Source: an uncultured cyanobacterium (GTDB taxonomy: Bacteria > Cyanobacteriota > Cyanobacteriia > Cyanobacteriales > Cyanobacteriaceae). From it: a stretch of DNA of 64,000 nucleotides. Positions 18,711-34,590 of this stretch are shown here, piece by piece. The translations under genes and the position numbers were made by a program. The stretch covers positions 608,001 through 672,000 of the forward strand of contig CAVVOP010000008.1 of NCBI GenBank assembly GCA_963749915.1. Reading direction: 5' to 3'. The notes beneath the pieces are model-generated. The model saw only the letters and a program-made list of their open reading frames with translations. It was not told the origin of the DNA and did not search any database. Numbering within the stretch: the stretch's first letter is position 1; every line of letters starts with the position of its first letter.

Positions 18711-19786
18711 TAGTACACCGAACTGGAAATAAATCCGATTACTTAAATTAGTAATGGTTTACCAATATAAGTCCATCGAAAGGGCTTAGCTAGAGTTTCA
18801 TTAAAGAACTCAATAAATTTAAGAATTCGGTTTTTAAGTTCTTCCGTAGAACTGAAGTTGCCCTTTTTAAGCAGACGACGGCTTAAAATTCCGAACCAGC
18901 TTTCGATTTGATTGAGCCATGAACAATGCTTGGGAGTATACACAAACCGGATACGATGACTTTTATTCTCTAAAAAAGTGGCACGACTCTTCATATTGTA
19001 GAGAATACCAGAAGACCCTTTTTTTCCTAACTCCTCTTTCAGACCACATAACTCTGCTACAAGCCGAACTAATCCTTCTGATTTGTGAGCATTCAATTGG
19101 TCACAAATAAAGATCCATTCTTCAGACGGATAAGTGGTTACCGTCCCACGGATATGTGCTACAAAATCTTCTTCAGTTCGGGTATCTCCTACGGTCGGAC
19201 AGATAACTTTCCCTGTGGCTACCTCAAAATTAGCAATTAACCCTTGAGTTCCATGACGTTCATATTCAAATTCTATTGCCTCGGGTTTGTTAGGTTCCAT
19301 GGGAAGAGTCGGATTAATTCTTTCTAATGCCTGAATACCTGTTTTTTCATCTGTACTCACCAGATGGACTCCTTGGGAGTGTAGTTCTTGGGCTTGATGA
19401 TACAACTTACACACTGTTCTGACTTCTTGTCTAAATTCTTGTTCATCCTCTACTTTATGGTTTAACCAATATTTACTTCGATGTGGTTGAAGATCTGCCT
19501 GATTTTAAAAAACGACCCACCGTTGTGGCGGAAATCTTCTCAACTATCCCTCTATTGATTATTTCTCTAACTAATTCTTTTCTAGTCCAATGACTCAGAT
19601 ATTCTGGTGGCGTTTCACAAGCTAATGCTATCACTTGGCAAACCTGTCTCGACTTCTCCCTATCCCTTGCAATAGTTCTGTTTGTTCCGAGGTTAGATTA
19701 ACCGCTTTCTTTGGTCGAGCCATTTTCCTCCTTGATATCGTTTGATTTTAAATCATTATCCGATATATTTGCAGTTTGCGGTACTA
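18711..19786 (-). mobile_element. IS630-family element, internally deleted
   Basis: TA-flanked imperfect TIRs (TAGTACACCGAACTGGAAATAAATC / TAGTACCGCAAACTGCAAATATATC). ATG 19723 reads MARPKKAVNLT. An out-of-frame HTH remnant SHWTRKEL is followed by a TTTTTTAAAA slippery site near 19505 and the DDE region. Confidence 0.9.
18743..19414 (-). pseudogene. IS630 transposase catalytic (DDE) portion
   Basis: STDEKTGIQAL, EYERHGT, DQLNAH, TPKHCSWLNQIE. Confidence 0.9.
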
Positions 19787-26229: not shown

Positions 26230-28509
26230 ATGAAAGGTAAAATTCAACCAAGAAAATTTAATTCTCAACAAATAACGCAAGCTTCTAGTATCAACTTAGA
26301 GGATTATTATAGTGACCGTTTACCTGTATTTGGACTCACTATTGATGATGCTACTACCGTTGATCGAGATGATGGCGTTTGGTTGATAGAATTAAATAAT
26401 GGGAGTTTTGAGCTGCAAGTAAGTATTACGGATGTATCTACGATTATCCCCAAAAATTCTCCCATTGACGAAGAAGCCTTATTGAGAGTGGCGACTTTAT
26501 ATCACACTACTCCGCCGACTCCCATGTTACCTTGTCATATTAGCACTAATTTAGGTTCATTAGAAGAGGAAAAAAGAAGATTAGCATTGACAATGTTTTT
26601 TCAAATAGACAATAGTGGAAGTGTTAATTCTTTTCGCATTAAAGAAACTATTTTTACCAGTAAAAAGGCTTTTAGTTATACACAAGTAGAAAAAATATTA
26701 AGCAATCCTCAAGATATTCCTGAACACCAGTTATTACTAAAAATGCAAAAAGTTGCCCAATTAATTGGTAAAAAAAGAGGCGGAAAATCAGGAATTTTGA
26801 CCATCGATGGTTATGTAGATGAAGATGGTAATTTAATCGAAGAAAATGTTAATACTTATCAATTAATTGCCGAATTAATGATTTTAACGAACACCACCAT
26901 TGGCAAATTTCTAGGTGAGAATAATATTCCAGCACTATATCGTACTCAAGACGTGGGCACAACAGATTTTGAGTTAGTTAAAAAAACTATGGGACATCTT
27001 TTAGTACCAGCAACTTATGCTTCTCATGTCAAGCCCCATGTGGGTTTAGGTTTAATGGCTTATACTCATTTTACCAGCCCTTTGCGCCGTTTTGTCGATT
27101 TAGTTAATCATCGTATTGTCAAGGCAATTATCAACAAACATTCATCTCCTTACACTGTAGAAGAATTAGATAATTTGTGTTTACAGATTAATGAATATCA
27201 TAAAAAATTTAAAGAAGATAAATCTAACTTCATGAGGAGAAAAAGACAAGCGGAAGTTGAGAAAAAATTTAATAATCTTGACACCTTAGAAGTCGATAAA
27301 TTATCCCTTGAGACGTTTTCCGATTTAATTGAATATGGTGTTTTAAATAATGAAATAAAAAAAATTATTCCCCATATAGAAGCTCGTATTGATAATTTAC
27401 AACCTAAAGATTTTTATTATTTATGGTTTGCCGCTAAAGTTAACCAATTCTTTGACTATGAAAACATTGATGCCGTTTCTGTTTTACTGGTAAAGTCTCA
27501 AATAGATAATTCTGTCATCGAGTATAAATCAGAACATTGTGAACTAAGAAAACTTTATTTTGTTTATTGTTATCTCGATGGAATGACAACCCTAAATCCC
27601 GCAGAAGATACGAAGAAAAGTAAAGCGAAACAAAAAGCTGCCTTAGCAACAATTCAAAGTTATTTGAATCAGGAATTAACCTCTAATCCTAATCCTATTC
27701 CCGAAGCAAATATAACCAATTCGCTATTTAATAATGAAATGGAAAATTTCCCCGATGCTGATTTTAATACACTAAGTGATAGAGATTTTTCTAAGATTTT
27801 AGACTACTGTATTAAGACTCATTTTGATGAAACAACTATCCAGGAAATAGAAGCGAGAATTAATAATTTATTACCTAAAGATTTATATAAAATTTGGTTT
27901 CAAGCCAGAATAAATAACTATTTTGATCATCCTAACTTTGACACAATTTCGGTACTTTTAATTCATTCACAATTAACAAATTGTACTTTAGAATATAAAA
28001 TCGATTATCATCCTAAGACTCAAAAATATATTGCCTATTGTTATGTAGATAATTTAACCCATCCTCAACCGCAATTTGCCGCAAAAAAAACGAAGGCAAA
28101 ACAAAAATCCTCCTTAGCTTATATTCAATCTTACCTTAATGATTGCTTAACAAATCAACCAGATTTATTTGAAGTGGAAGAAGAAGCCGTTGCCGAAGAA
28201 AATTTAACAGATATTATTAATCCCATTAATGGGGTTAACCCAGAGGAAAAAGAGGGAAATAATAAAGAAAAAACTCTCATGGATGAATCAGATTGGGTCT
28301 CAATTCTACATCATTTCTGTCAGGTGAATCAATTAAATTATCCTAGGTATAACTTTGATAATATTGATGGGTTTTTTACTTGTCAAATTAGCTTAATTTA
28401 TGATAATAAAACTATTGTTTCTAGAGGTTATGGTAAAAACAAGAAAGATGCTAAACAAAGTGCTTCTAATATTTTAATTGTTCAACACCAGTTAATAGTT
28501 AGTGATTAA
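26230..28509 (+). CDS. RNB (RNase II/R) domain exoribonuclease with three C-terminal dsRBD-like modules
   Basis: TIDDATTVDRDDG catalytic Asp cluster; YTHFTSPLRRFVDLVNHR; KKSKAKQKAA, KKTKAKQKSS and GKNKKDAKQSAS dsRBD-like signatures. Confidence 0.85.
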   Translation: MKGKIQPRKFNSQQITQASSINLEDYYSDRLPVFGLTIDDATTVDRDDGVWLIELNNGSFELQVSITDVSTIIPKNSPIDEEALLRVATLYHTTPPTPMLPCHISTNLGSLEEEKRRLALTMFFQIDNSGSVNSFRIKETIFTSKKAFSYTQVEKILSNPQDIPEHQLLLKMQKVAQLIGKKRGGKSGILTIDGYVDEDGNLIEENVNTYQLIAELMILTNTTIGKFLGENNIPALYRTQDVGTTDFELVKKTMGHLLVPATYASHVKPHVGLGLMAYTHFTSPLRRFVDLVNHRIVKAIINKHSSPYTVEELDNLCLQINEYHKKFKEDKSNFMRRKRQAEVEKKFNNLDTLEVDKLSLETFSDLIEYGVLNNEIKKIIPHIEARIDNLQPKDFYYLWFAAKVNQFFDYENIDAVSVLLVKSQIDNSVIEYKSEHCELRKLYFVYCYLDGMTTLNPAEDTKKSKAKQKAALATIQSYLNQELTSNPNPIPEANITNSLFNNEMENFPDADFNTLSDRDFSKILDYCIKTHFDETTIQEIEARINNLLPKDLYKIWFQARINNYFDHPNFDTISVLLIHSQLTNCTLEYKIDYHPKTQKYIAYCYVDNLTHPQPQFAAKKTKAKQKSSLAYIQSYLNDCLTNQPDLFEVEEEAVAEENLTDIINPINGVNPEEKEGNNKEKTLMDESDWVSILHHFCQVNQLNYPRYNFDNIDGFFTCQISLIYDNKTIVSRGYGKNKKDAKQSASNILIVQHQLIVSD

Positions 28510-33420: not shown

Positions 33421-34590
33421 ATGGTCGTATCGTCAGATATAATCGCCAGTATAGCCAATGATTTAAGTAATTTACAGGAAACAAAAAGAGCTAAAAAATT
33501 AATCTTTTATGTAAGTCAAAGATATTGGGAGTCTGATTTTGCCATAGTGAACAGTTATTCTTTTGAATTTTTACTACAAAGTCTTTATGAAAGTAATCCT
33601 ACTATTGACGACATAAAGGCCCTACTATATCATGCGGTCAATACCCTCAATCGCAAAGAAGTTTACAATAAAATTGCTAACTATATATTTAAAAGAATGT
33701 CAGAGTTGTATAACAACACTGATATGAGTCTTGTTGATCAAAGCGTGAGTCAAGGGGATGAAGATGAATTAATCGATTACATTGTCGAAAATATTCAATA
33801 TCATGAAGAATTCCCCAGAATCAAAAAATTAATTTTCGCTACCTGTAAACAATATTGGGAAAATGATGTCAATGTGATCGAGATGTACGATCTCAGGAAA
33901 TTGTTATTGGAACTACACCAACATTATCCCAGTTCCCGAAGATTAAGAAAAGCCCTTGATGATATCGTTGCCACCATTAACCGTCAAAATTTTTATTCTT
34001 TTATCGCTGATACCATTATGGGGGAATTAACCCCTTTATATCAACACGAAACCAATGAAGTAATATCAGGGGTGGATACTGGGGAACAAGTAGTAGAAAC
34101 TGGATTAATTAAGGCTAAAAGTCACAATACCTCAGATCAACATTCCCAAGCTAATACTGCGGCAAAAGATTCCACCAATATTCAACCCCCCTCTGAATTA
34201 GAAAAATGTGATTCCTCTGACCCAGTGGCTGATATTGTTCCTAGTAGTGTTCCCGAAGGGCAAGTTATTCCTTGGCTTAAAATCGATAATCTTTTTGATC
34301 TCAAACAGGAGATCATGCAATATACGAATCCTCTGCGGGCTAAGATCATTTTATTCTATGCAGTTTATCAGATTGAACCCTCGGAACAACATTGGTCCAT
34401 CGTCCGCACCTGTAGTATAAATGATTTACTAATTAAAATACTTCAGCAGTACGACAAAAATATTAAAACCATTGAGACTCAATTATCACACGTAGCTAAC
34501 TCCAGTATAGAAGGCTTAGAGCCGGAAGATAATGCTCAAGCCGTTAGTGCCATCGTCGAATCTATTAAGCACTTTTATAAAAAGTCATAG
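33421..34590 (+). CDS. Hypothetical protein with repeated helical domain
   Basis: RAKKLIF..YWESD / RIKKLIF..YWEND / RAKIILF repeats. Confidence 0.75.
   Translation: MVVSSDIIASIANDLSNLQETKRAKKLIFYVSQRYWESDFAIVNSYSFEFLLQSLYESNPTIDDIKALLYHAVNTLNRKEVYNKIANYIFKRMSELYNNTDMSLVDQSVSQGDEDELIDYIVENIQYHEEFPRIKKLIFATCKQYWENDVNVIEMYDLRKLLLELHQHYPSSRRLRKALDDIVATINRQNFYSFIADTIMGELTPLYQHETNEVISGVDTGEQVVETGLIKAKSHNTSDQHSQANTAAKDSTNIQPPSELEKCDSSDPVADIVPSSVPEGQVIPWLKIDNLFDLKQEIMQYTNPLRAKIILFYAVYQIEPSEQHWSIVRTCSINDLLIKILQQYDKNIKTIETQLSHVANSSIEGLEPEDNAQAVSAIVESIKHFYKKS

Follow-up and report, generated by a model that had tools for sequence, protein, structure and literature searches.

An RNB protein with three C-terminal dsRBDs

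The window (the whole 64-kb stretch of DNA that was analysed) contains at 26230-28509 of the forward strand a single ORF that encodes a 759-aa protein of the RNase II/R (RNB) type. Pfam and AlphaFold2 divide this protein into an RNB domain, two tandem copies of a three-helix unit joined to a dsRBD, an acidic linker, and a terminal dsRBD. The RNB catalytic domain occupies residues 1-345 (26230-27264, forward strand, as are all features of the gene given below) with no cold-shock domains ahead of it, as judged by alignment to the E. coli RNase R structure 5xgu and by a Pfam RNB match that starts at residue 36 and falls into two stretches (E = 9.3e-59; 199.7 bits compared to a cut-off of 29.3). 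Repeat 1 (residues 346-488; 27265-27693), delimited by self-alignment and fold search, consists of a three-helix unit (360-401) and a dsRBD fold (415-479). Repeat 2 (residues 503-645; 27736-28164) has a three-helix unit (517-558) and a dsRBD-type topology (572-636), an assignment that rests on homology to repeat 1 and on the predicted topology. The terminal dsRBD (residues 686-755; 28285-28494) carries a KKDAK motif, is matched by Pfam dsrm over residues 689-746 (E = 1.5e-10; 41.9 bits compared to a cut-off of 23), and aligns to many solved dsRBDs with Z ≈11. No cold-shock/OB or S1 family was matched by Pfam at E ≤ 1 in the 759-aa protein. The first-pass annotation of this DNA had claimed an RNB domain near the N-terminus with intact motifs, the absence of cold-shock and S1 domains, and a terminal dsRBD, and these results agree with it on each point.

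The AlphaFold2 model of the 759-aa protein, computed from a 50-row alignment, has a mean pLDDT of 82.6 and a pTM of 0.56, and the placement of the dsRBDs relative to the RNB channel is poorly fixed in it. The alpha-beta-beta-beta-alpha fold is predicted three times (residues 415-479, 572-636, and 689-752), and the acidic linker (649-686) is disordered. Modelling of the C-terminal repeats, which had been suggested as a check on their nature, thus returned the dsRBD fold and not some other fold.

The flanking genes are unrelated, as had also been claimed: a divergent gene of the sodium:dicarboxylate symporter family lies upstream, and a convergent 134-aa ORF, for which nothing was found over Pfam cut-offs, lies downstream. 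The closest named homologues come from Geminocystis and Cyanobacterium, so that the host most probably belongs to the same cyanobacterial family as these. Elsewhere in the window, an ORF for a DDE_3 (IS630-type) transposase is present at 18743-19414 on the reverse strand, with short MFS and other fragments continuing to 21040. A 389-aa ORF at 33421-34590 on the forward strand, with genes for an FHA-domain protein and a pentapeptide-repeat protein on either side, has an apparent internal repeat and nothing over Pfam cut-offs.

A conserved active site and a shortened wedge

The RNB domain contains the catalytic motif D39-x5-D45-x-D47-D48, whose aspartates are encoded within 26344-26373, and an HFTSPLRR motif at residues 280-287. 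The model of residues 1-342 superimposes on E. coli RNase R (5xgu) with Z = 33.3 and an rmsd of 3.0 Å over 327 residues. In the alignment to the 5xgu chain, with RNase R residues numbered as chain index plus 80, D39, D45, D47, and D48 match D272, D278, D280, and D281 of RNase R, and Y91 and Y150 match Y324 and Y383; the available text of PMC5714204 names these RNase R residues as catalytic and end-clamping. Conservation was scored in 50 close homologues and 72 distant family members. D39, D47, and D48 are present in 72/72 distant and 50/50 close rows, D45 in 71/72 and 49/50, respectively, and Tyr91, Tyr150, and Arg286 are conserved across both sets. The RNB fold and conserved active site imply that the protein is probably a hydrolytic 3'-5' exoribonuclease, and the gene is real and conserved, with a product that is probably active.

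The RNB domain lacks ≈40 Pfam positions (profile 230-270), which correspond to the wedge region. What remains of the tri-helix wedge in the 5xgu alignment and the AlphaFold2 model is one short helix in a stretch of 20 residues (241-260; 26950-27009) compared to 59 residues in E. coli RNase R (487-545). Across the wedge, all 48 measurable close homologues (53 examined) have a spacing of 39 residues, and the distant members have a median of 58 (109/147 measurable); hand counts gave 78 for E. coli RNase R and 49 for the Rnb-like protein of the host. E. coli RNase R without its tri-helix wedge (487-545) is described in part of PMC5714204 as having lost unwinding while keeping RNA binding and degradation of ssRNA.

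Internal repeats, three-helix units, and dsRBD motifs

The two repeats align without gaps, with 61/143 identical residues and a profile-profile E of 1.4e-65, so that the earlier claim of a duplicated ≈140-aa unit is confirmed. The accompanying description of this unit as dsRBD-like was right for the C-terminal half, which has a dsRBD fold; the N-terminal ≈55 aa instead form the three-helix unit. Repeat 1 modelled alone reached a pLDDT of 95.8. When its model was searched against 48,161 chains, all 50 rows listed were dsRBDs (best match, Z = 9.6, with an rmsd of 1.8 Å over 67 residues), and none of these listed matches aligned the three-helix unit. Foldseek again returned dsRBDs, at a best E of 0.017 with nothing at E ≤ 0.001, and a search of the ESM Atlas with repeat 1 gave no usable match. 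The internal repeats contain no Pfam dsrm stretch. A dsRBD profile built from distant members scored them faintly, at 10.4 and 6.1 bits compared to 4.4 bits for the best of 200 shuffles, and hhalign against the terminal dsRBD gave 36% for repeat 2 and 1% for repeat 1.

The GxxH loop and the KKxAK motif are RNA-contact motifs of dsRBDs. All three dsRBDs of the host protein keep the K-x-x-A-K lysine patch, lack the GxxH loop, and have a near-neutral charge. K463 of repeat 1 is a lysine in 50/50 close rows and 66/72 distant rows. Scored with a loose pattern, GxxH occurs in 122/222 later-position dsRBDs of distant members and in 36/142 first-position ones. RNA binding by the dsRBDs of the host protein is therefore not assured, because GxxH is absent and the charge is near-neutral.

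Of 147 distant members, 133 carry one three-helix unit, 4 carry two, and 10 carry none; the unit is found in 0/18 ordinary RNB proteins, and in the host genome it is confined to the 26230-28509 gene. We conclude that this unit is a hallmark of the RNB-dsRBD family. Sister proteins of ≈586 aa have a single copy of the repeat. Because the unit is single in 133/147 distant members, the repeat duplication is largely peculiar to the clade of the host.

A third RNB gene of the host, under purifying selection

The 26230-28509 gene is the third RNB gene of the host genome. Of the other two, one codes for a Zam-like protein whose catalytic motif is degenerate, and one for an Rnb-like protein. The Zam-like gene, identified from the available part of PMC9145284, lies outside the window (L001:769-3015; G000:C8). 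The sole other dsrm protein in the host genome is RNase III. RNase PH did not score above cut-off in this genome, but this absence is uninformative because Synechocystis is also reported to lack RNase PH in the available part of PMC10989914.

The gene is present in 19/20 genomes of the host's family, small ones included; the remaining genome is a 93% complete assembly in 530 contigs. Across the RNB domain, repeat 1, repeat 2, and the terminal domain, dN was 0.11-0.53 compared to dS of 0.8-2.1 in five comparisons, with dS saturated in a sixth. Thus, the gene is under purifying selection. Its flanks vary among 7 host-family genomes, with the symporter gene upstream in 3/7. When two candidates per genome were scored across the phylum, matches at E ≤ 1e-60 were found in 14/401 cyanobacterial genomes, including one match to an ordinary RNase II, so that true members occur in at least 13/401.

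Distribution of the RNB-dsRBD family

When 1.84 billion representatives were searched by profile for forms of at least 417 aa, the best 150 listed included 146 new proteins; clustered at 50% identity, the family comprises no fewer than 150 clusters. The catalytic motif lies no more than 74 residues from the N-terminus in 144/146 distant representatives, and the other two have variant motifs; on these grounds, we rejected the possibility of a mis-started ordinary RNase R. In 144 proteins scanned with Pfam (the host protein and 143/146 of the new ones), RNB was matched in 144/144, dsrm in 135/144 (68/72 and 67/72 in two batches), and cold-shock or S1 families in none. By local profile, 122/146 members have 2 or 3 dsRBDs, within a range of 0-6.

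Among the best 80 of 521 candidates, below which ordinary RNB genes appear, are members from Cyanobacteriota, Bacteroidota, Ignavibacteriota, Chloroflexota, Armatimonadota, Actinomycetota, Pseudomonadota, and candidate bacterial phyla, and archaeal members from Methanosarcina and Nanoarchaeia. A FastTree tree of RNB domains, with six redundant rows left out, separated 81 family rows from 28 ordinary rows by one branch (SH-like support 94), and RNase II lies on the opposite side of that branch. The host clade is long-branched and is not grouped with other cyanobacterial members, with low support (62) for its placement. We conclude that the RNB-dsRBD family is widespread. Database labels call its members 'ribonuclease R' or 'RNB domain-containing', and the family is apparently unstudied in the published literature: titles and abstracts in the open full-text literature, the scope of our search, gave no description of an RNB-dsRBD protein, nor does the available part of PMC10516660 mention this architecture.

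Plasmid records with a match at E ≤ 1e-30 number 70, mostly large plasmids and mainly from Rhodococcus, Acaryochloris, Pseudomonas, and Streptomyces; the 4/4 plasmid members checked have the RNB domain, the helical unit, and 2-3 dsRBDs. Among the best 80 viral loci, 3 encode the full architecture, and the contigs that carry them are 202-536 kb long. INPHARED gave 39 matches, of which the 30 listed cover the RNB part only, and the annotated ones among those listed are ordinary RNase R/II or carry other names. On these listed matches, we rejected a phage family as an explanation of these genes.

Several members differ in form or setting. Those of Acaryochloris (L039, L040, L041, and L213; mostly on plasmids) have an N-terminal extension of ≈130 aa ahead of the RNB domain, and one strain carries a copy on each of several plasmids beside genes for RecA/RecD-like proteins and a small RNA-binding protein. 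A Ktedonobacteraceae member (L080:5905-7533) is split into a 335-aa RNB ORF and a 198-aa ORF with a dsRBD, and an 875-aa member of a Melainabacteria-type genome (L018/L107) has four dsRBD-type domains. In the Glycomycetaceae (Glycomyces loci L083-L104), the gene occupies a fixed chromosomal site, which makes this the second lineage in which it is fixed, beside an ORF that we take to resemble tyrosyl-tRNA synthetase.

Gene neighborhoods

No partner gene recurring across phyla was found among the family loci. Recurring neighbors are limited to single lineages, such as Glycomyces and the plasmid ParA/ParB and RecA/RecD genes, and, given also the differing flanks in the 7 host-family genomes, a conserved operon was rejected. 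With no conserved neighbor, the neighborhoods give no pointer to the substrate.

PADLOC 2.0 gave no match to the host protein at E ≤ 1e-12. After 20 high-GC and 13 short-flank cyanobacterial loci were left out, 48 of 81 loci were scanned, in which 28/382 neighbor ORFs matched PADLOC models, a raw, uncontrolled count. Most of these matches are generic (UvrD, ABC ATPase, methyltransferase, subtilase, and RecD). A plausible defence gene lies within 6 kb at no more than 8/48 loci, likewise a raw count, the candidates being cas1/2/4, a type II methyltransferase, an McrB-like gene, three PDC candidates, a PD-DExK nuclease, and a Cas4-like gene. A defence island was rejected because the matches are few and mostly generic, and the survey for defence-island enrichment that the first-pass annotation had suggested thus gave it no support.

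In the Methanosarcinaceae, the gene occurs in 14/151 genomes, and CRISPR repeat copies lie within 1.5 kb of it in 13/15 loci. At these loci (L058:5648-12100; L081; L188-L209), the gene sits at the end of a CRISPR array with degenerate repeat copies flanking it, and in L058 cas1/2/4 lie at the opposite end of the array. The same repeats also enclose unrelated genes in the vicinity, so that the array tail looks like a series of gene-sized cassettes. Our literature search found no paper on this arrangement.

Comparison with known RNB and dsRBD proteins

RNase R (E. coli Rnr, 5xgu; B. subtilis, 8cdu; M. genitalium, 7dcy) gives the best sequence and structure matches of the host protein, with which it shares the RNB fold (Z = 33), the catalytic aspartates, the clamp tyrosines, and the phosphate arginine. 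The host protein differs from RNase R by the absence of the HTH, CSD1, CSD2, S1, and K/R-tail elements, by the presence of dsRBDs, by the 20-residue rather than 59-residue wedge, and by a TIGR02063 score of 177.9 bits compared to a cut-off of 597.85. RNase II (E. coli Rnb, 2ix0; cyanobacterial Sll1290-type Rnb) has the RNB core and active site in common with the host protein, and the Rnb-like protein of the host is likewise short in the wedge region. In contrast to RNase II, the host protein lacks cold-shock and S1 domains and scores under the TIGR02062 and PRK05054 cut-offs. Against the NCBIfam models for RNase R and RNase II, the RNB part alone aligns, with scores far under the cut-offs. Therefore, by these membership tests, the protein is neither RNase R nor RNase II, and it has a new domain architecture inside the RNB superfamily.

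Deinococcus radiodurans DrII (2r7d) and the Haloferax volcanii RNase R similarly have a compact RNB domain without cold-shock domains. DrII, which presumably carries an S1 domain, aligns to the host protein in one piece (residues 30-301). DrII has an N-terminal HTH (PMC5758563, in part), and dsRBDs are not among the features described for DrII or the Haloferax enzyme in the available parts of PMC12320835 and PMC5758563. More broadly, none of the deviant RNB members Dss1, Ssd1, DrII, and the Haloferax enzyme has dsRBDs according to the portion of PMC12320835 available. RNase III, R2D2, Loquacious, TRBP, and Staufen have the alpha-beta-beta-beta-alpha module and lysine patch in common with the host protein, whose dsRBDs are joined to an exonuclease core and not to an RNase III domain. 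The host clade further differs in the loss of the GxxH loop and in the three-helix unit that precedes each internal copy.

Discussion

The reading that we favor, at a probability of about 0.45, is that of a putative 3'-5' exoribonuclease that trims 3' tails back to the helix while docked on a stem. The dsRBDs, with K-x-x-A-K in all three, would hold an RNA helix, and the 3' single-stranded tail would be fed into the exposed RNB channel. Absence of the cold-shock clamp would allow close approach to the stem, and with little wedge the enzyme may stall there without unwinding it. Putative substrates include stable RNA precursors, terminator hairpins, RNase III products, and sRNA duplexes. In the host's family, the protein would be a fixed chromosomal enzyme of RNA metabolism alongside Rnb and Zam; elsewhere, it may be an accessory gene, often on large plasmids. 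Trimming is suggested rather than unwinding because the wedge is cut to 20 residues and RNase R needs its wedge to unwind. DrII gives a precedent for an RNB enzyme without cold-shock domains whose open surface accommodates pre-tRNA (PMC5758563, in part). A short wedge is nevertheless no proof of stalling, because, as reported in the available part of PMC12320835, RNase II gains the ability to digest duplexes when C-terminal RNA-binding domains are added, and at its optimal temperature the minimal Haloferax enzyme breaks down structured RNA.

The gain of duplex degradation by an RNase II core from C-terminal RNA-binding modules also speaks for the main rival reading, a true duplex-degrading exoribonuclease, in which tandem dsRBDs would replace the S1/basic tail and the wedge and grip the duplex so firmly that the RNB motor could pull through it. 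The dsRBDs start at the usual position of S1, and RNase R is the best match by structure and by sequence. Such an enzyme might supply an RNase R-like activity so far not found in cyanobacteria, in turnover of antisense/sRNA duplexes or rRNA: the review PMC10989914, as far as its available text extends, knows of no cyanobacterial enzyme of the RNase R type, and the other host RNB genes are the degenerate-motif Zam-like and the Rnb-like ones. However, the wedge is down to 20 residues, and absence of the gene from most sampled cyanobacteria means that it is not a general cyanobacterial solution. We regard both the duplex-degrading mechanism and the RNase R-like role as doubtful. The first-pass annotation had proposed an active exonuclease on structured RNA for duplex turnover; the dsRBD folds and retained catalytic residues support its first part, and duplex turnover is less certain because of the 20-residue wedge and the missing GxxH in the three dsRBDs.

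Alternatively, degenerate dsRBDs could serve as protein-interaction or dimerisation modules of an RNase II-like single-strand nuclease that is recruited by a partner. Staufen dsRBD5 and TRBP/Loqs dsRBD3 bind proteins, and repeat 1 matches Staufen dsRBD5 (Z = 9.6), Loqs dsRBD3 (Z = 9.3), and the ADAR1 dsRBD3 dimer (Z = 9.0); GxxH is missing from 3/3 dsRBDs, and in the model every internal dsRBD packs against a three-helix unit. RNA-binding dsRBDs score within 1 Z unit, however (R2D2, 9.5; RNase III, 9.3), all three domains show strong conservation of the lysine patch, and many distant members keep GxxH, making this reading unlikely. A defence or conflict nuclease that acts on invader or antisense duplex RNA, whether anti-phage, in plasmid competition, or as a CRISPR accessory, would fit the patchy occurrence over many phyla, the 70 plasmid records with the full architecture in 4/4 checked, and the CRISPR repeats around the gene in Methanosarcinaceae. 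Yet the gene is near-fixed in the host's family, the protein has no PADLOC match, few loci lie near a plausible defence gene, the CRISPR link is limited to one lineage in which the same repeats bound unrelated genes, and viral loci with the architecture are rare (3 of the best 80). We consider a defence nuclease unlikely here, and the anti-phage role first suggested for the host gene is not supported, given its presence in 19/20 genomes and the PADLOC results.

Apart from its mechanism, the family bears on how RNB enzymes engage RNA. Prokaryotic RNB enzymes in the papers cited here, so far as their available texts describe them, either hold RNA by means of cold-shock and S1 domains or possess only rudimentary extras, whereas the RNB-dsRBD family would use dsRBDs. 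Since dsRBD number and wedge length both vary among its members, the family offers a natural test of how RNB enzymes handle stems, and an exonuclease with a preference for duplexes, or one that halts at them, might find use as a reagent. Rather speculatively, the family may form a third prokaryotic RNB class in which one to six dsRBDs replace the OB folds and wedge and which degrades dsRNA from its ends; if so, it would be the exonucleolytic counterpart of RNase III. It is equally tentative that such a class, spread by plasmids in bacteria and archaea, supplies one cyanobacterial family with its missing exonuclease for structured RNA. For cyanobacteria, the available part of PMC10989914 gives two or three RNB genes, with an RNase R-like one not known and the third gene undescribed. 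The protein reported here is a concrete candidate for that third gene, and it bears on the question raised there of whether any cyanobacterial exonuclease acts on structured RNA.
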